Shown here: positions 21,067 to 62,908 of the stretch, piece by piece
How the letters are laid out: each line of letters opens with the position of its first letter
Numbering within the stretch: the stretch's first letter is position 1
DNA from: Candidatus Moraniibacteriota bacterium
Lineage (GTDB): Bacteria; Patescibacteriota; Minisyncoccia; Moranbacterales; UBA1568
DNA: 64,000 bases
Reading direction: 5' to 3'
NCBI GenBank assembly: GCA_013334575.1
Contig: JAAXXG010000001.1
Location: 41,280-105,279 of the forward strand
The notes under the pieces: generated by a model
What the model saw: only the letters and a program-made list of their open reading frames with translations
The model's database searches: none
What the model was told of the DNA's origin: nothing
Position numbers and translations under genes: made by a program

Positions 21067-21103
21067 TTTCGGCGGCTTCGTTTCTGTGGGTCGTGCAGGG
21101 CTC
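21067..21103. repeat. 37-bp direct repeat, copy B (overlaps the 3' end of the intact tRNA-Lys)
   Basis: Identical to 20889..20925. Confidence 0.8.
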
Positions 21104-21159
21104 GAACCTGCGACCGTTGGCTTAAAAGGCCACTGCTCTACCAGCTGAGCTAACGACCC
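21087..21159 (-). tRNA. tRNA-Lys (anticodon TTT)
   Basis: Reverse complement is GGGTCGTTAGCTCAGCTGGTAGAGCAGTGGCCTTTTAAGCCAACGGTCGCAGGTTCGAGCCCTGCACGACCCA. All four stems pair. Confidence 0.9.
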
Positions 21160-21321
21160 GGAATATGCCGATCCCGATCTTTCATTTTATTTCCGGTGCC
21201 ATTGTCGTCTAGGGCTCGGTCACGGATATCTTTCACGCCGTCGCATGAAAGATTCCTCGACCCCGGCTCGCTGTCCGGTCTGCTGACCAAACGACGCTCC
21301 GCCTTTCGAATCCTGACGGAT

Positions 21322-21379
21322 TCGAACCTGCGACCGTTGGCTTAAAAGGCCACTGCTCTGCCAGCTGAGCCAACGACCC
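21322..21379 (-). pseudogene. Truncated tRNA-Lys: 5' fragment covering positions 1-58, with the 3' T-stem/acceptor replaced
   Basis: 58 nt match the intact gene apart from two D-arm substitutions. The 3' T-stem and acceptor cannot pair (CCGTC / AGGATTC). The fragment is followed by an 8-bp perfect hairpin, tcgaatcc-tgac-ggattcga. Confidence 0.7.
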
Positions 21380-21499
21380 GGAAACATGGCAAGTATATAC
21401 TTGCTCTTACAAGGCGTCAATCAGTCGCTTTTCGGGCATCGGTCCTTCTGATATACTGATTCCGTGCCGGAAACGGCCGAAAATAACCATCGGACCAAT

Positions 21500-55154: not shown

Positions 55155-55296
55155 ACGCGTGCCGATCGTGACCATGCGGCGGGTCCGGGCTCGGACCCGC
55201 CTTTTGTATTCCGAAGAATTTTGCATTCCGACAAACGATGGGGTATAACGGCGGTAGTCGGACAGTCTCGTTAACAGAATCGAAGGCAGGTGACCC

Positions 55297-55470
55297 ATGG
55301 TTACGGATACGAACGATCAATCAGGACTTGAGCTCGTCATCATTTCCATCGCGTTTTTTTCGGCCTATGTATTACTGATGGCGATAATGGCTTTTTTGAA
55401 GATATTTTGGCTTCCATATGTGATAGGAGCCGTCGTCATCGGACTCTCATGGAAAGCCGTGTATCGATAG
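55297..55470 (+). CDS. Possible 57-aa two-TM small membrane protein
   Basis: Own translation: MVTDTNDQSGLELVIISIAFFSAYVLLMAIMAFLKIFWLPYVIGAVVIGLSWKAVYR. Not in the ORF track. Confidence 0.2.
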   Translation: MVTDTNDQSGLELVIISIAFFSAYVLLMAIMAFLKIFWLPYVIGAVVIGLSWKAVYR

Positions 55471-55732
55471 GGCGGTGCTTCTGCGTACGAAGGATACCGT
55501 GATCAGGAGGGCTATAATGGCTCTCCTGAACTGGTTTTCAGAAGAGGTTCTGTCGGAAAGAGTCTTGACAGAACGTTTGTTTCGCTGTAAAATAAGTTGA
55601 TTCCGACACTTGATCGGAATTATCTGGCACATTACCAAATGCGATCAATCGGACAGCGTCTCGGACGTCTCTTTGCGAGGTTTCTGAAGCGCTGTCCGAT
55701 TTCCGGCAGCGCAATAAAAAGAATATCGAACG

Positions 55733-56359: not shown

Positions 56360-57766
56360 ATGTCCCTCATGGTCAGCGTCTCGGGAATCCGAGGCATCGT
56401 CGGGGAAGACCTGACACCGGAAAATCTCGTCTCCTACGCCCGGGGGTTCGCCGTCTGGCTGCGGAGATCGGTACCGGATAGCCGGAAACCGCTCGTCGTC
56501 ATCGGTCGGGATACCCGGCCTTCGGGGCGTCCGATCGCCGCACTCATAGCCGAGACGCTCGCCCTTTCCGGGTGCGACGTGATCGACCTCGGTATCGCGA
56601 CCACTCCGACGGTCGAACTCGCCGTCACCGACAAGAAAGCCGACGGAGGCATCATCGTGACCGCATCCCATAATCCCGCTCCCTGGAACGCGCTCAAGCT
56701 GCTTACGTCGGCGGGGGAGTTTCTCAGCGGAACGGAGCTCGACGAATTCCTCGCCGCGACGGACCATGCCGATCGGTCCTCGGCCGCCTGGGACGGTATC
56801 GGTTCCGTCGAGCGCGACGCGACGGCGGATACGGCACATATGGACCGGATCCTGGCGCTCCCGTTCGTCGACACGGACGCGATATCGCGGCAGGGATTCC
56901 GGGTCCTCGTGGACGCCGTGGAAGGGGCCGGCTCGTCCGTGGTTCCGGCGCTCTGCGAGCGGCTCGGTATCGCGCACGTGGAACGGCTCGACTGCGACGG
57001 AACCGGCCTGTTTCCGAGGAATCCCGAACCGATCATCGACAACCTCGGGGAAACGATCGCGAAAGTCCGCGAGACGGACTGCGACTTCGGCATCATCGTC
57101 GATCCGGACGTCGACCGACTCGCGCTCGTCTGCGAGGATGGAACGCTCTTCGGCGAAGAATACACCCTCGTGGCCTGCGCCGATTTCTACCTTGAGAAAT
57201 ATCCCGGAACCGTCGTGAATAACCTCTCGAGTAGCCGCGCGCTTCGCGACGTGGCCGTCTTACACGGACAGCGATGCGTCAGCGCCGCAGTCGGCGAAGC
57301 GAACGTCGTTTCTGTCATGAAGGAGGAAGATGCTGTCATCGGCGGCGAGGGAAACGGCGGCGTCATCCTGCCGTCGCTTCACTACGGGCGAGACGCGCTT
57401 GTCGGTATCGCACTGTTCGTTTCTGCGTTCGCATCCTGGCGCGAGAAACGCGGAGCGGATGAGGAGCGTACGCTCTCAGCCTTCCGAAAGACCTTCCCGC
57501 AATACTTCATGGCCAAGAAGAAGATCGAGGTCTCCGTCCCGAAGGACCGTCTCGCAACACTCTTTGAGACGATTGCACAGGCACATCCTGAAGCCGAACC
57601 GGATACGCGCGACGGTCTCAAACTTGATTTTCCGGACTCCTGGGTCCATCTCCGGGCCTCGAACACCGAACCGATCGTCCGTATCTATACCGAAGCGAAG
57701 ACGGCGGAAGAAGCCGACCGGATAGCGGAATCGTATATTTCAGAAATCTCCGCGATTCAGGAATAA
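56360..57766 (+). CDS. glmM: Phosphoglucosamine mutase / phosphohexomutase
   Basis: SVSGIRGIVGEDLTPE plus the TASHNPAPWNALK active-site Ser motif. Four-domain alpha-D-phosphohexomutase length. Confidence 0.8.
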   Translation: MSLMVSVSGIRGIVGEDLTPENLVSYARGFAVWLRRSVPDSRKPLVVIGRDTRPSGRPIAALIAETLALSGCDVIDLGIATTPTVELAVTDKKADGGIIVTASHNPAPWNALKLLTSAGEFLSGTELDEFLAATDHADRSSAAWDGIGSVERDATADTAHMDRILALPFVDTDAISRQGFRVLVDAVEGAGSSVVPALCERLGIAHVERLDCDGTGLFPRNPEPIIDNLGETIAKVRETDCDFGIIVDPDVDRLALVCEDGTLFGEEYTLVACADFYLEKYPGTVVNNLSSSRALRDVAVLHGQRCVSAAVGEANVVSVMKEEDAVIGGEGNGGVILPSLHYGRDALVGIALFVSAFASWREKRGADEERTLSAFRKTFPQYFMAKKKIEVSVPKDRLATLFETIAQAHPEAEPDTRDGLKLDFPDSWVHLRASNTEPIVRIYTEAKTAEEADRIAESYISEISAIQE

Positions 57767-57815
57767 GCCCAAGGGATGGGATTTTCGGGGCCGATGGCGC
57801 TTCCGTTTCCGGTAC

Positions 57816-57844
57816 TTGATTTATTTTTGCGGAAGTGCTATAAT
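57816..57844 (+). promoter_or_regulatory. Consensus sigma70 promoter TTGATT-17-TATAAT
   Basis: Read from the sequence. There is no protein gene downstream on this strand. Confidence 0.55.
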
Positions 57845-57850
57845 ATAGAC

Positions 57851-58066
57851 GAATGAGGATAGTGCCGAAACAGTTTCGGACAACGGCCTTTCGGCTTCGG
57901 AATCGGGCAATGTCCCGCTTCTCCTCGTCAGTCGGCGTCCAGAACAAAACCAGGGAGGTAGTGATGCGATGACCACCCCTCTTGCGCGTAATCATACATA
58001 AAACGGCCGGGCAACTAAGAGGAGTCCTTGCGAGCGCAACGCCGGACTCCTCTTCTTATTTTTTTC
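57851..58066 (+). ncRNA. Candidate small RNA (~215 nt), unidentified family
   Basis: A consensus promoter is followed by hairpin-rich sequence and a strong terminator. The only ORF is a 41-codon, extremely basic peptide starting at the TSS with no RBS. Confidence 0.35.
58017..58066 (+). terminator. Intrinsic terminator: 11-bp stem aagaggagtcc/ggactcctctt plus U-tract
   Basis: Read from the sequence. It may also terminate the convergent RND operon. Confidence 0.65.
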
Positions 58067-58189
58067 TCCGAACCGTTCTGATACGAAGGTATGCATCGGT
58101 TTTCATTCCGCTTCAGGCAAAGGCCTGCTTCGGAAGCGAATCACGATTCCTGTCCGCACTGAACCGGAAAGCCCAGACTTCGCTCACGT

Positions 58190-58417
58190 TCATCTTTTCT
58201 TATCGAATGTCGTATCGACGAGGATCGCCATCGGGCAGTAGCCCGTCATCGCGAAGAAGACAAGCATGACGCCCACGAAGAGATCGCCCCACGCGAAGCG
58301 GATGTCCGCAAGGATCGAGAGTGCCGCGAAGACCGCGACCATGATTCCCGCGATGGCGAACATGATCCGCTCGACCGTCCACGCGGAGGTATCGAGCCGG
58401 TAGATATTCCGTTTCAT
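58190..58417 (-). CDS. DUF2892 (YgaP-like) small membrane protein
   Basis: 75 aa with two TM helices. The DUF2892 pattern ...AGIMVAVFAALS...GVMLVFFAMTGYCPM is present. Confidence 0.55.
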   Translation of the reverse strand: MKRNIYRLDTSAWTVERIMFAIAGIMVAVFAALSILADIRFAWGDLFVGVMLVFFAMTGYCPMAILVDTTFDKKR

Positions 58418-58450
58418 AGTGGTTTCGTTGCGATTTCCGATGTTCCGACG

Positions 58451-61400
58451 CTAGGCGTCCCAGTGTTTCCGCTCGAAGACATGGTATACGAGCGGGAAGA
58501 TGACCAGCGTCAGGAAGGTCGATGCGGAGAGTCCGAAGATGATCGCCCAGGCGAGCCCTTCCCAGACCGGATCAGTGATGATCGTGAGAGAGCCCAGGAT
58601 CGCCGTCAGCGAGGTGAGCGTGATCGGGAGCAATCTGACCCGTCCCGTCTCCACGAGCGCCTCCTTGAGGGGTTTTCCGGCCTTTCGAAGGGGTTCCAGG
58701 TATTCGAGGAAGATGACCGAGTTCTTGACCGAGAGGCCGGCGAGCGAGATGACGCCGATCATCGAGGTCGCGTTGAAGTAGGTCCCCTTGATCGCATGAA
58801 GGAGCGCGAATCCCGGGAACACCCCGATGAGTCCGAGCGGGATGGATACCATGATGAGCAGCGGGACGAAGAGAGATTCCGTTTTCGCGGCGAGCACGAA
58901 GTAGATAAGGAAGATGGCGACACCCATCGCGATGCCCAGGTCGCGGAAAACCTCGAGCGTCAGCTTCCATTCGCCGCCTAGTTCGACCGCATAGCGCTTT
59001 CCGGTCGTCTGATCCTCGTATTCGGCACCGAGCAGGGACCAGGAGACAAGCTTCCCGTTTCCGTCCGGCAGCCGGTATGAGAGCAGTTTCGGGAACAGGT
59101 CGATCACCGCGTAGACTACGCTCCGCCCTTCCATCTCGGCCGAGACCGCCACGGTCGGCTGCCGGTTGTCCGAAAGAATCGGGAGATCCGTCGCACGGTC
59201 CGTCTTTTCGAGCAGTTCGGTGAGCGGAACCTGCGTTCCGGTCGTACGTGAGGGGATGGAGATTCCGGAGAGATCGTTCTCCTCGTCACGCGATTCGCGG
59301 GCAAGGCGCAGGAAGACGTATTCCTGTTCCGACTGCCGGACACCCGGAGCCAGCGACTCGTGGTACAGTCCGACCTGAGCTCCGGAAAGCGCGATATGCA
59401 GCGTCGCGGCGATATCCGATGGCGAGACGCCGAGCAGACCGGCCTTCTCGGTACGGATGCGATAGGAATAGCCGAGGACGCGTTCCGGTGTCGAGCGGTC
59501 GATATCCGTCGTTCCGGAGATATTCCTGACCTCATCCTCGATGTCGCGCGCCATATCCTCACGGACACGTTCATCGTCACCCTTCACCTTGAGGTAGAAA
59601 GTCGCCATGACCGGCGGTCCCGGCGGATCCTCCATGATACGCACGGACATATCCGGATGTTCCTGCGAGAGCCGTTCGGCGCGTTTCCGGAAGTCGGACG
59701 CGATCTCCTCGGACATGCGGTCGCGGTCTTCCGATTCGGAGAGATTCACCCGCAGGGTCGCCTGGTTACCCGATACGCGCGTCGCGCTTCCCTTGAAGAG
59801 CCCGTTGAAATCGCTCACCGGAGCCTCGCCGACGAAGCTCTCCACGCTTTCGACTTCCGAGATATCGAGTGCCACGCTCTCGGTCTCCCGCGCGATATCG
59901 CGGGTCACGTCGACGGAAGTCGACGTCGGCATATCGAGATAGACGTAGAACTGCTGGCGATCCGCCTTCGGAAGCATGCGGAACGGGACGGCGGGCGAGA
60001 AGGGGAGGATGACGGAAACCGCGAAGATCGCCGCGGTACCGAGGATCGTGCCGAGCCGGCGCTTCCGCGTGGCCAGGAGCGACGAGAGGAGCTTCCCGTA
60101 GCGTCGGTCGAGCCGCTCGAACTGACGCAGGAAGAATCCTTCGTGCGCATGGTCCTTGCCGGTATCCTTCGGCGTGAAGACGAGCGCGAGAAAAGGATTC
60201 ACCGTCACGGAAAAGAGGAGGGACGCGAAGAGCGATGCCGGCACGAAGAAGGGGATGGGAGCCATGTAGGGCCCCATCATACCGGTGACGAACGCCATCG
60301 GGATGAAGGAGATGGCCATGGTCAGCGTCGAAAGCGCCAGGGCGCCGCCGACCTCGTCGACCGCCTTCACGATGAGGCGGATGCGGTTCTCCCCGGGATA
60401 GAGGCGGAAATATCGTGCGACGTTCTCGATGACGACGATCGCGTCGTCGACAAGGAGTCCGAGCGCCAGGATGAGCGCGAAGAGGGTGATGCGGTTCACC
60501 GTCTGACCGGCGAAGAGTCCCATGCCGAATACCGCCAGAAGCACGAGCGGGATCGAGACCGCCGCGACCATCGCGTTCCGGAAACCGAGGAACATCATGA
60601 GCAGTACGGCGACCACGATGACCGATTTCGTAAGGTCGAAGGTGAGCTTGCCGATTTCCTCGCCTGCGATGGCCCCCTCGTCGCGCAGCACGTGTGCGGA
60701 GACGTCGGACGGGATCGTCGTTCCCTTGAGCGACTCGAGGCGGGAGAGGACCCCTTCGGAAACGGTCGTCGCGTTCGTTCCGCGCAGTTTGGAGAGGGCG
60801 ATATGCACGACCGGAGAATCGGATCCCTCGTGTTCCGACAGGTCGACGGAGTCGGTGATCTCGCCGGGTCCGTACGAGATGTCGGCGATATCGGAAAGCC
60901 GCGTCACGGCCGATCCCTCCTGCCGTATGACGAGATTGCCGAGGTCCTCGGTACCCCGGAGATTCCCAGATACGGTAAGAGACGGCGTCCGATCCTCACC
61001 GTCGACGGGCTCGACGAGTCCGATGCCGTTCGACCCGCCGATTATGCCGGCGATCTCGCCGAGGGATATGCCACGGGCGGAAAGTTCGGAAGCGCGCGGC
61101 TCGACCAGAAGCCGATTGACGCGCCCACCGATCACTTCGACGCGCGATACGCCGTCCTCACGCTTCAGTTCGTCCGCGACATCGGCGGCGAGCCGGCGGA
61201 GCGAGGTCTCGGAGAGGGTTTCCGAGGTGAGGCCGATATCGATGATCGGTACGTCGTCCGGATCGACCGACTGTACGATCGGATCCATGGCGCCGGCAGG
61301 CTTCTGTGTAATATGGTCCCGGAGCTTCTGATTGAGAGCGATCTTCGCCTCTTCGCGGTCGTATCCGACGAGAAATTTGACCATGACCATACTCCGCCCG

Positions 61401-61732
61401 CCCGGATGACTTTCGGACGAGATCTCGTCGATTCCCGGCAACTCGGAGACGCGGTCTTCCATCGGTCGCGTGATGAGCTCGTACACCTCGGAAGCGGACG
61501 CGTTCGGAAAATCCGTCACGATCACGAACGCGGGAGCGACGATGTCGGGATTGTACTGTTTCGGTGTCAGGATGAAAGAAAGCGTGCCCCAGGCCGCGAC
61601 TACGATGATCGTCAGGATGGAAAGTTCCCGCTTTCCGAGAAAGAGCGCGGTGATCCTTCCCGCAAGACCGAGGCGCTCGCGCCCGCTCGGGGCTTCTTCA
61701 CGACCGGAAACCGGAGATGTCGGTTCGTTCAT
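58451..61732 (-). CDS. RND efflux transporter permease (AcrB/HAE-like)
   Basis: 1093 aa with 12 TM helices and two large periplasmic loops. The N-terminal region aligns with AcrB. Confidence 0.85.
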   Translation of the reverse strand: MNEPTSPVSGREEAPSGRERLGLAGRITALFLGKRELSILTIIVVAAWGTLSFILTPKQYNPDIVAPAFVIVTDFPNASASEVYELITRPMEDRVSELPGIDEISSESHPGGRSMVMVKFLVGYDREEAKIALNQKLRDHITQKPAGAMDPIVQSVDPDDVPIIDIGLTSETLSETSLRRLAADVADELKREDGVSRVEVIGGRVNRLLVEPRASELSARGISLGEIAGIIGGSNGIGLVEPVDGEDRTPSLTVSGNLRGTEDLGNLVIRQEGSAVTRLSDIADISYGPGEITDSVDLSEHEGSDSPVVHIALSKLRGTNATTVSEGVLSRLESLKGTTIPSDVSAHVLRDEGAIAGEEIGKLTFDLTKSVIVVAVLLMMFLGFRNAMVAAVSIPLVLLAVFGMGLFAGQTVNRITLFALILALGLLVDDAIVVIENVARYFRLYPGENRIRLIVKAVDEVGGALALSTLTMAISFIPMAFVTGMMGPYMAPIPFFVPASLFASLLFSVTVNPFLALVFTPKDTGKDHAHEGFFLRQFERLDRRYGKLLSSLLATRKRRLGTILGTAAIFAVSVILPFSPAVPFRMLPKADRQQFYVYLDMPTSTSVDVTRDIARETESVALDISEVESVESFVGEAPVSDFNGLFKGSATRVSGNQATLRVNLSESEDRDRMSEEIASDFRKRAERLSQEHPDMSVRIMEDPPGPPVMATFYLKVKGDDERVREDMARDIEDEVRNISGTTDIDRSTPERVLGYSYRIRTEKAGLLGVSPSDIAATLHIALSGAQVGLYHESLAPGVRQSEQEYVFLRLARESRDEENDLSGISIPSRTTGTQVPLTELLEKTDRATDLPILSDNRQPTVAVSAEMEGRSVVYAVIDLFPKLLSYRLPDGNGKLVSWSLLGAEYEDQTTGKRYAVELGGEWKLTLEVFRDLGIAMGVAIFLIYFVLAAKTESLFVPLLIMVSIPLGLIGVFPGFALLHAIKGTYFNATSMIGVISLAGLSVKNSVIFLEYLEPLRKAGKPLKEALVETGRVRLLPITLTSLTAILGSLTIITDPVWEGLAWAIIFGLSASTFLTLVIFPLVYHVFERKHWDA

Positions 61733-61756
61733 AAGGTTCGTTCTGGAGAGGAAGGA

Positions 61757-62908
61757 TCAACGGGAGACGATCACGCGATCTCCATCGCGCAAGGCGTAGG
61801 CACCCTCGACGACCACCTCCGTTCCGGCATCGATACCGGAGCGGATCTCGCGTCGGTCGGCGACCGATTCGCCGAGAACGACCTTCCGGAAGGAAACCGT
61901 ATCGTTTTCGACGGCCGCGACGAAGGTGTCGTCGTACAGGTGAATGATCGCCGTTTCCGGAACGGATACCGTTTCCCGTGCCGTTCCGGAGGGAAGTGTC
62001 ACCGTCACGAACCGACCCGGAAGAAGAGAACCTCCGACATCGGCCGGAATTCCGACACGGATGATCGTCGACTGCGACGAGATGCCGACCGCCCGGGCGA
62101 TCGAGATGACCGAGCCGGAAACCGGATCGGAGCCGGTCTCCGAACGGACCGACACGGTATCTCCCTTCGCTATCGCGGTCGCGACATCACCCGGTACGGA
62201 CAGACGCGTTTCGAGCGATTCGGTCGAGGCGACCGTAAACAGCGGCATGCCGGGGCCGACGAAGGTGCCAAGCGAGACGAAGCGGTTCGTCACGACGCCG
62301 GAAAACGGCGCGGTGATAGTCGCGTCCGAGACCGCCGCTCCGGCGACCAGGCTTCCGCCGTATGCCGCCCCCACTTCCGCCTTGGCGGCGGCATGCTGCG
62401 CGTCGCGCATGCGTTTCGCGCTCGTGACCGCCTCCTTCGCGATCGAAAGGTCGCGGGACGAAAGGTCTCCGTTCTCATAGGCGTCTTCCGCCTTATGAAG
62501 TGACGCCTCGGCCTCGTCGACCTTCTGGTCATAGAAATCGTCGGATGCGGAAAGGGCGTTTTTCGCCGCATCGAGAGAGATTCCGGCGCTCTCGAGCATC
62601 GCGCGCTGATCGCTGCCGTCGAGAATGGCGAGCGTCTCGCCGGCGCGCACGGTGTCACCTTCCTCCTTGAGAAGCTTCACGACGTATCCGCCGACCTTGG
62701 GAGCGACGTCCGCCTGACGAGCACCGGTCACGAATCCGGAAACGTCGCGTGACGGCCGGAACGGGGCAGGGGAGAGCGTCTCGGTACTGACCTGTTTCGA
62801 TGCCACGACGGGAACCGGTTCGGCCTCCGTTTTTCGGAGGGTCAGGTATCCGACGGCGATCGCAGCGGCTGGGATAACGAAAAAGAGAGCGGAACACATC
62901 CGTTTCAT
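61757..62908 (-). CDS. Efflux RND transporter periplasmic adaptor (membrane fusion protein, HlyD family)
   Basis: N-terminal anchor, coiled-coil hairpin, lipoyl and beta-barrel domains. Lies immediately upstream of the RND gene. Confidence 0.75.
   Translation of the reverse strand: MKRMCSALFFVIPAAAIAVGYLTLRKTEAEPVPVVASKQVSTETLSPAPFRPSRDVSGFVTGARQADVAPKVGGYVVKLLKEEGDTVRAGETLAILDGSDQRAMLESAGISLDAAKNALSASDDFYDQKVDEAEASLHKAEDAYENGDLSSRDLSIAKEAVTSAKRMRDAQHAAAKAEVGAAYGGSLVAGAAVSDATITAPFSGVVTNRFVSLGTFVGPGMPLFTVASTESLETRLSVPGDVATAIAKGDTVSVRSETGSDPVSGSVISIARAVGISSQSTIIRVGIPADVGGSLLPGRFVTVTLPSGTARETVSVPETAIIHLYDDTFVAAVENDTVSFRKVVLGESVADRREIRSGIDAGTEVVVEGAYALRDGDRVIVSR

Follow-up and report, generated by a model that had tools for sequence, protein, structure and literature searches.

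Comparative sequence analysis supports the view that a short unit downstream of glmM in a Candidatus Moraniibacteriota genome (Moranbacteria, CPR; uncultured) behaves as an independent small-RNA gene rather than as a protein gene. The explanation that we favor, tentatively and with somewhat less than even confidence, is that about 57851-58065 on the plus strand of the window (the whole 64-kb stretch of DNA that was analyzed) would be an independently transcribed small-RNA gene of an undescribed family, so far detected only in some Moraniibacteriota. Its putative functional part is the 3′ domain (57948-58065), which is shared with a related locus, L001.

Genomic context and transcription signals

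The unit lies in a 423-nt gap that separates glmM from a convergent DUF2892/AcrB operon. No conserved ORF was found within this gap, whose only ORFs failed every coding test applied. Flanking genes and predicted transcription signals are the following:

56360-57766, plus strand: glmM, stop at 57766, with the unit directly downstream
57816-57844, plus strand: sigma-70-type promoter, consensus match (-35 TTGATT 57816-57821; 17-nt spacer; TG 57836-57837; -10 TATAAT 57839-57844)
58017-58054, plus strand: terminator hairpin, folding at -21.8 kcal/mol
58017-58027 and 58044-58054, plus strand: G+C-rich 11-bp terminator stem, AAGAGGAGTCC pairing with GGACTCCTCTT
58028-58043, plus strand: 16-nt terminator loop TTGCGAGCGCAACGCC, holding a 3-bp upper stem GCG/CGC
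58033-58039, plus strand: apical loop AGCGCAA inside the 16-nt terminator loop
58055-58065, plus strand: U-tract CTTATTTTTTT / CUUAUUUUUUU, where the small RNA and glmM transcripts are both predicted to end
58190-58417, minus strand: DUF2892/YgaP-like gene, the next gene beyond the gap
58451-61732, minus strand: AcrB-type pump, after the DUF2892/YgaP-like gene

The window GlmM was 99% identical to a protein from a Candidatus Moranbacteria MAG and 71% identical to GlmM of L001. Outside its own clade, the nearest GlmM sequences were those of Chlorobi (about 60%) and Bacteroidota (about 47-52%), and this similarity of CPR GlmM hints at an unusual gene history. Minus-strand genes span 58190-62908, and no gene on the same strand as the unit occurs for >3.6 kb downstream of it; an earlier sequence-only reading of this DNA had correctly placed the next gene on the opposite strand.

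The predicted +1 is at about 57851-57853. The promoter matches the consensus at 10 of 12 positions, with a perfect -10 and an extended -10 TG. With the two strands of the window scanned in full (128 kb), only 12 sites scored at least 10/12, and when these were ranked by hexamer matches with bonuses for TG and for a 17-nt spacer, the promoter of the unit tied for second with three others, consistent with the sequence-only reading, which had counted it among the best sigma70 matches in the window. A scan of the 50-64 kb region yielded eight consensus sites versus 4.9 ± 2.2 expected, which was not a significant enrichment over shuffled sequences. Because consensus matches alone are not above chance, the promoter needs comparative support. 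At the homologous position of L001 we found TTGACA-17-TACCAT, with TGTG before the -10.

The predicted transcript, which would start at about 57851 and stop with the U-tract at 58065, has about 215 nt, the length proposed earlier. The proposed ending in an 11-bp GC-rich stem and a U-tract was also confirmed, the stem being extended by the upper one (11+3 bp). In strength, this terminator is about sixth among the hairpin-plus-T-tract sites of the window. A stock terminator scanner missed it because the 16-nt loop exceeds the scanner limit of 8. Comparison with L001, whose unit terminator folds at -21.5 kcal/mol, revealed four compensatory changes in the stem, two changes from G-C to G-U and no broken pair (counted by hand on a pairwise alignment of the two sequences), and the terminator loop was identical at 15 of 16 positions. 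Thus, the hairpin, the U-tract and stem covariation with L001 provide the intrinsic terminator expected of a stand-alone small-RNA gene.

A terminator scan of the plus strand detected no terminator-like site between the glmM stop (57766) and the hairpin of the unit. Since glmM lacks a terminator of its own, this hairpin also ends glmM transcripts, and the RNA can arise both from its own promoter and as a glmM 3′-UTR. As judged from the sequence, the unit doubles as the 3′-UTR and terminator of glmM and hence is not strictly orphan, contrary to the earlier description. At 58100-58130, the minus strand can form a hairpin (CAGGC CUUU GCCUG, extended by flanking pairs), for which Rfam gave a chance-level CRISPR-DR10 match (13 bits, E = 8.6). 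Because this hairpin has no U-tract, the DUF2892/AcrB operon has no obvious terminator before the hairpin of the unit.

Additional signals were observed in the window. A weak antisense promoter-like site (TCGGCA-17-TATTAT, 9/12; 57840-57868, minus strand) overlaps the palindromic TATAATATA of the unit -10 and is directed into glmM at its 3′ end. In a separate gap of 578 nt (55155-55732), we noted a strong terminator at 55178-55201 and a hydrophobic ORF of 57 aa at 55297-55470. Two further hairpins occur there (55503-55529 and 55547-55574), and a promoter scoring 11/12 (55565-55593) precedes an ORF of 169 aa that is unannotated.

Conservation of the 3′ domain and coding potential

A related unit was identified in L001 (4945-5170), with a promoter, a transcript of about 185 nt and a terminator. 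Its best local alignment in the 64-kb window, both strands considered, was the unit described here (score 48). The next-best distinct region of the window scored 26, the 99th percentile of 1276 tiles was 24, and background 99.5th percentiles over all compared loci were 24-25. The reverse comparison agreed, such that the two units are reciprocal best matches. The 3′ domain was identical at 75 of 108 aligned positions (69%), whereas fourfold-degenerate glmM sites were 45% identical in the same pair, and therefore the 3′ domain is under selection. The intergenic region upstream of glmM was unalignable between the two loci. Promoter and terminator were present at matching places in both units. Conservation beyond the neutral level, in the absence of a conserved ORF, was thus observed with one independent homolog. 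A second assembly of the window species (L087) did not differ from the window in the element or its flanks and adds no independent sequence, so that the comparative evidence consists of two independent sequences, the window and L001.

In L001, glmM and the unit are separated by a 72-aa ORF that has its own terminator, and this implies that the unit is not simply a glmM 3′-UTR. Beyond the L001 unit, read-through would head toward NAD kinase. We also observed three tandem copies of CCGATTATTTT directly after this unit (L001 5165-5350), followed by a second mini-unit (TTGACA-17-TATCCT, about 90 nt, and a terminator, GGATCACTCAACGAGTGATC, with a T-tract) that shares CGGCC...CATATAA with the first.

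The transcript is accordingly divided as follows:

57851-57947, plus strand: variable 5′ half, which cannot be aligned with L001 (score 12)
57853-57972, plus strand: 39-aa Arg-rich ORF that starts near the +1, judged not to be a gene
57865-57879, plus strand: predicted hairpin CCGAAACAGTTTCGG, lineage-specific
57885-57895, plus strand: second predicted hairpin GGCCTTTCGGC
57899-57920, plus strand: third predicted hairpin
57948-58065, plus strand: conserved 3′ domain of about 120 nt, shared with L001
57954-57958, plus strand: SD GGAGG, conserved in L001, 5 nt before the AUG
57964-57972, plus strand: mini-ORF AUG CGA UGA (AUG CUA CGA UGA in L001)
57983-57996, plus strand: longest conserved block TGCGCGTAATCATA, identical in L001 at 13 of 14 positions

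A four-way MAFFT alignment placed a 26-nt insertion in the window sequence relative to L001 and two further loci, L208 and L214, and the hairpin at 57865-57879 falls inside this insertion. The two internal hairpins that the sequence-only reading had cited in favor of a structured RNA do exist, but both are located in the unalignable 5′ half and do not provide that support. Moreover, the whole transcript folded no better than shuffled sequence (z = -0.39). The proposal of a structured non-coding RNA is therefore upheld in part: the unit resembles an RNA gene and the 39-aa ORF is not conserved, but folding above the level of shuffled sequence was not seen. Conservation in related genomes, which had been suggested as a check, was likewise seen for part of the unit, with the 3′ domain, promoter and terminator kept in L001 and the 5′ half not kept.

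The 39-aa ORF is indeed Arg-rich (8 Arg among 39 residues), as stated earlier, but with its stop codon it comprises 40 codons rather than the 41 reported. No homolog was found at E ≤ 0.001 among 1.84 billion representative proteins, there was no Pfam match, the sole PDB match was at chance level (E = 0.4), and the L001 unit has no counterpart; this ORF was rejected as a gene. Two other ORFs that overlap the unit, of 125 aa on the minus strand and 95 aa on the plus strand, had no family matches, and their N-terminal likeness to L001 ORFs is explained by mirroring of the conserved DNA blocks. Peptides translated in the same frame from the 3′ domains of the window and L001 gave BLOSUM scores of 35, 36 and 30. 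Since the three frames score alike, no frame of the 3′ domain shows a coding signal.

These scores also bear on whether the unit, like arfA and brfA, might encode a micro-protein that is translated from a non-stop mRNA. Such a product would end at the 3′ end of the transcript and be controlled by trans-translation. In both species the frame of the mini-ORF reopens shortly after the UGA (9 nt past it at UUG in the window, 6 nt past it at GUG in L001, in each case 18 nt from the AUG) and stays open through the terminator (MRVIIHKTAGQLRGVLASATPDSSSYFF... and MRVNITAAHIRRMLLRRAPPSILFLF...), and the lengths from the first AUG to just past the U-tract differ by exactly 3 nt. Known genes of this type are small ORFs with an internal terminator that are translated from non-stop mRNA, and in brfA the intrinsic terminator within the ORF is proven (PMC6881298). 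The unit resembles them in having, in both homologs, a frame through a strong terminator, and in being small and stand-alone with its own candidate promoter. However, no protein-level conservation or similarity to ArfA or BrfA was seen, no frame being preferred, and the differences in the stem are compensatory changes of the type expected for RNA. The putative UUG or GUG start has no SD, and an in-frame UGA separates it from the only SD-AUG. The peptide would have 26-28 aa, far below BrfA (about 62 aa). It had no Pfam match and no PDB match at E ≤ 10, although solved structures exist for ArfA and BrfA complexes. On balance, we consider such a micro-protein very improbable.

None of the known RNA families accounted for the unit. 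At gathering score, Rfam 15 identified only three tRNAs in the whole window and nothing on the unit; at E ≤ 10, the region 57700-58250 gave only the 13-bit CRISPR-DR10 match on the other strand, and the L001 and L214 units gave chance-level matches only. No tmRNA was found with ARAGORN. Candidates considered and rejected comprised 6S, SRP, tmRNA, RNase P, riboswitches and known sRNAs (no Rfam 15 match), a 6S-like rod (not supported by the fold) and a CsrA sponge (by hand count, 6 GGA motifs in 215 nt versus about 3.7 expected, which is not an enrichment). The failure of the sequence-only reading to fit the unit by eye to SRP, 6S, tmRNA or RNase P thus agrees with the Rfam check. With regard to the tRNAs, two tandem tRNA-Lys(UUU) genes, 146 nt apart, were observed at 21086-21380 (minus strand), the second scoring much lower in Rfam (41 versus 70 bits).

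Mini-ORF and predicted loop contact

A feature of the 3′ domain that qualifies its description as an RNA gene is the SD-AUG. In L001, GGAGG is followed after 5 nt by the three-codon counterpart of the mini-ORF, and the CGA-UGA ending is common to both species; in the window, another AUG (57969) shares nucleotides with the stop, forming AUGA. Because the conserved 3′ half carries this perfect SD-AUG mini-ORF, the term non-coding is not fully settled, and a perfect conserved SD-AUG counts against a purely non-coding RNA, since it is unusual for such RNA. Partition function calculations predicted that the SD and mini-ORF are mostly paired, with an unpaired probability of 0.25 for the SD region in the window and 0.11 in L001.

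One explanation for this arrangement would be a ribosome-sensing attenuator, in which the mini-ORF serves as a tiny uORF and its translation status sets read-through of the terminator. A ribosome on Met-Arg-stop (Met-Leu-Arg-stop in L001) would cover the segment after the UGA, and this segment, when freed, would pair with the 5′ arm of the terminator. A short ORF with a ribosome-binding site before the terminator is what such a device calls for, and conservation extends to the SD, its 5-nt distance from the AUG, the AUG itself and the CGA-UGA ending. The post-UGA segment paired with the 5′ arm of its own terminator at -9.9 kcal/mol in the window (p = 0.09) and -8.8 kcal/mol in L001 (p = 0.04), and at only -6.1 and -1.4 kcal/mol with the arm of the other species (p = 0.48 and 0.99). 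There is an established regulator of this kind that was first catalogued as a small RNA, the uORF leader rli53 upstream of lmo0919 in Listeria (PMC11550727), and leaders of vmlR-type ABC-F genes are tiny-uORF attenuators as well (PMC9226507). The unit is laid out in a similar way, with a candidate promoter, then an SD and an ORF of very few codons, and finally an intrinsic terminator, and an alternative pairing of a terminator arm is possible. These leaders, however, sit upstream of the gene that they control, whereas the next gene after the unit is convergent, the downstream genes vary by locus and no candidate for regulation lies on the same strand within the >3.6 kb noted above; read-through in the window would enter the DUF2892/AcrB efflux operon in antisense orientation. 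In addition, and unlike in those leaders, evidence for an antiterminator is weak: the 2:3 (antiterminator-type) pairing has only 6 bp and is weakly significant, and strong 1:2 and SD-to-3′-arm pairings were obtained for L001 only, not for the window. The predicted pairing of the SD and mini-ORF, together with the lack of an AUG at the equivalent place in L208, also argues against this explanation, and we regard an attenuator as distinctly unlikely.

A second feature of the 3′ domain, and one more in line with the favored small-RNA gene, involves the terminator loop. Complementarity exists between the apical loop and a conserved block upstream of it, UGCGCGUAA: in the window, UUGCGC (57982-57987) pairs with GCGCAA of the loop, and in L001, where the apical loop is ACGCGCAC, GUGCGCG pairs with CGCGCAC. 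Between window and L001, this helix shows one compensatory change (U-A to G-C) and one added pair, and the helix 57982-57987 : 58034-58039 was picked independently by RNAalifold. The loop-block duplex had -9.1 kcal/mol in the window (p = 0.009) and -14.5 kcal/mol in L001 (p < 0.001) relative to shuffled controls. CGGCC sits between the TGCGCGTAATCATA block and the terminator, and the partition function predicted both the A/U-rich tail after GCGCG (to about 58003) and the apical loop to be unpaired in both species. Since most paired bases are invariant and there is a single compensatory pair, the pseudoknot is a lead and not proof.

Pairing of a hairpin loop with an upstream segment to form a pseudoknot, and kissing of palindromic loops, are general RNA motifs. 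The unit is similar to these in that its apical loop (AGCGCAA, or the L001 form) has a GCGC palindrome and a complementary upstream conserved block, and differs from established examples in that the predicted interaction rests on one compensatory pair.

The post-glmM slot in relatives and the preferred model

Downstream genes differ in every locus, including L001, L208 and L214. By Smith-Waterman scan, the window-type 3′ domain was absent from 11 other distinct Moraniibacteriota glmM loci, whose GlmM proteins are 65-73% identical to that of the window. The slot after glmM contained the following in relatives:

L085 5592-5729 and L213 3320-3457: 45-aa ORF (M.TFNNRPSVW...EYFS.LTGW...KKRLP), with a strong SD and a terminator
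L209 2312-2518: 68-aa ORF, beyond which lie DUF2892/AcrB genes like those of the window
L001 4586-4804: 72-aa ORF, between glmM and the L001 unit
L208 2352-2525 and L214 4475-4650: ORF-poor units (promoter, about 140 nt, terminator) directly after glmM

The post-glmM small proteins (45-72 aa; L085, L213, L001 and L209) share the motif (V/A)CE(Y/F)F.PLTG(W/Y), each of their genes has a strong SD and a terminator, and no Pfam family was found for them.

The ORF-poor units of L208 and L214 may be distant relatives of the window unit. GTTCTTT occurs exactly 18 nt past the -10 in the L208, L214 and L001 units, and AATGAGG occurs 7 nt past the -10 in L214 and the window. The MFE folds of L208 and L214 contain a CCGGA/UCCGG hairpin, around which a 5′ CU-rich motif is base-paired with a G-rich segment resembling an SD.

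The small-protein genes raise the question of whether the window unit is a functionless, decaying remnant of such a cassette, in which the hairpin is kept for glmM termination, and perhaps also terminates the convergent efflux operon, and the promoter is a leftover. In relatives with the same flanks, the slot does hold a short ORF that has a strong SD and a terminator; its length is 45 aa in L085 and L213 and 68-72 aa in L209 and L001. The 3′ arm of the L001 terminator is similar to its counterpart in the L213 small gene (score 31, p < 0.003), and the L213 SD and start (AGGGAGG-5nt-GATGACC) have a similar counterpart in the window with 2 extra nt (p = 0.09). On the other hand, 69% identity of the 3′ domain was retained although synonymous sites are saturated at 45%, the 9-14-nt blocks and the fixed loop would not persist in a remnant, the promoter is conserved too, and L001 has an intact small gene and the unit in tandem. 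A functionless relic is therefore unlikely in our view. Shared ancestry is a separate matter: the unit may share ancestry with the small-gene cassette, although the link is weak; descent from the 45-aa gene cassette specifically is only partly supported and was kept as a lead.

Further copies were sought with the pattern TGCGCGTAAN{22,48}TTGCGAN{0,2}GCGCA. In metagenomes, this loose pattern had at least 120 GC-rich chance matches, none listed with other features of the unit, and in viral contigs it had no match. A mobile-element origin was rejected, as nothing similar was found in phage or plasmid collections.

In the small-RNA model that we prefer, the terminator stem would be free to vary and the apical loop would be fixed. 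Pairing of the loop with the upstream UUGCGC would yield a compact, pseudoknotted 3′ end, leaving exposed the A/U-rich stretch between block and loop (GUAAUCAUACAUAAAAC). The exposed stretch, the apical loop, or both would then form a contact surface in trans, either base-pairing with a target RNA or binding a protein; of these, we infer a trans-acting mechanism by base-pairing through the exposed conserved segments. A ribosome-binding site passed down from an ancestor may account for the GGAGG-AUG mini-ORF.

When start regions of 47 window genes were screened for complementarity to the conserved block or loop, nothing stood out. Other observations were made on window start regions using crude start calls. 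GGAGG was present within 20 nt of the start in 4 of 46 window genes (crude ATG-first calls), and GAACG occurred just before the start codon in 8 of 47, versus about 1.8 expected (16 nt upstream, crude starts). GAACG could be an initiation-context motif specific to the lineage, or it could be an artefact that stems from calling the starts crudely.

DapZ and MicL exemplify small-RNA genes that lie in or overlap an mRNA 3′-UTR, use their own internal promoter and share the intrinsic terminator of the mRNA. Similarly, the candidate promoter of the unit is just past the upstream stop codon and its terminator is shared with the upstream gene; it also has a conserved 3′ region, a variable 5′ region and a length of about 200 nt. 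It differs from this class in that it has no sequence or Rfam relationship to it, occurs in a CPR host and carries a perfect SD-AUG mini-ORF.

A bolder proposal, which we regard as a long shot, is that the 3′ domain is a CPR-specific ribosome-engaging device that reports translation or termination (RF2) status, or that feeds an arfA/brfA-style non-stop frame. The predicted components would be the perfect SD-AUG, the two- or three-codon ORF ending in CGA-UGA and the pseudoknotted terminator a few nucleotides downstream. Such a device may have evolved from the small-protein gene found in the slot in relatives.

Should the unit prove to be no more than a terminator or relic, it would be an ordinary finding. 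CPR bacteria (Patescibacteria) have tiny genomes, cannot be cultured alone and lack many classical regulators, and as far as we are aware next to nothing is known of their small RNAs. The unit is possibly a case of an RNA gene sharing a fast-evolving small-gene slot with a micro-protein gene. If true, a conserved stand-alone RNA gene with a fixed loop and a mini-ORF would provide a handle on post-transcriptional control in CPR bacteria.
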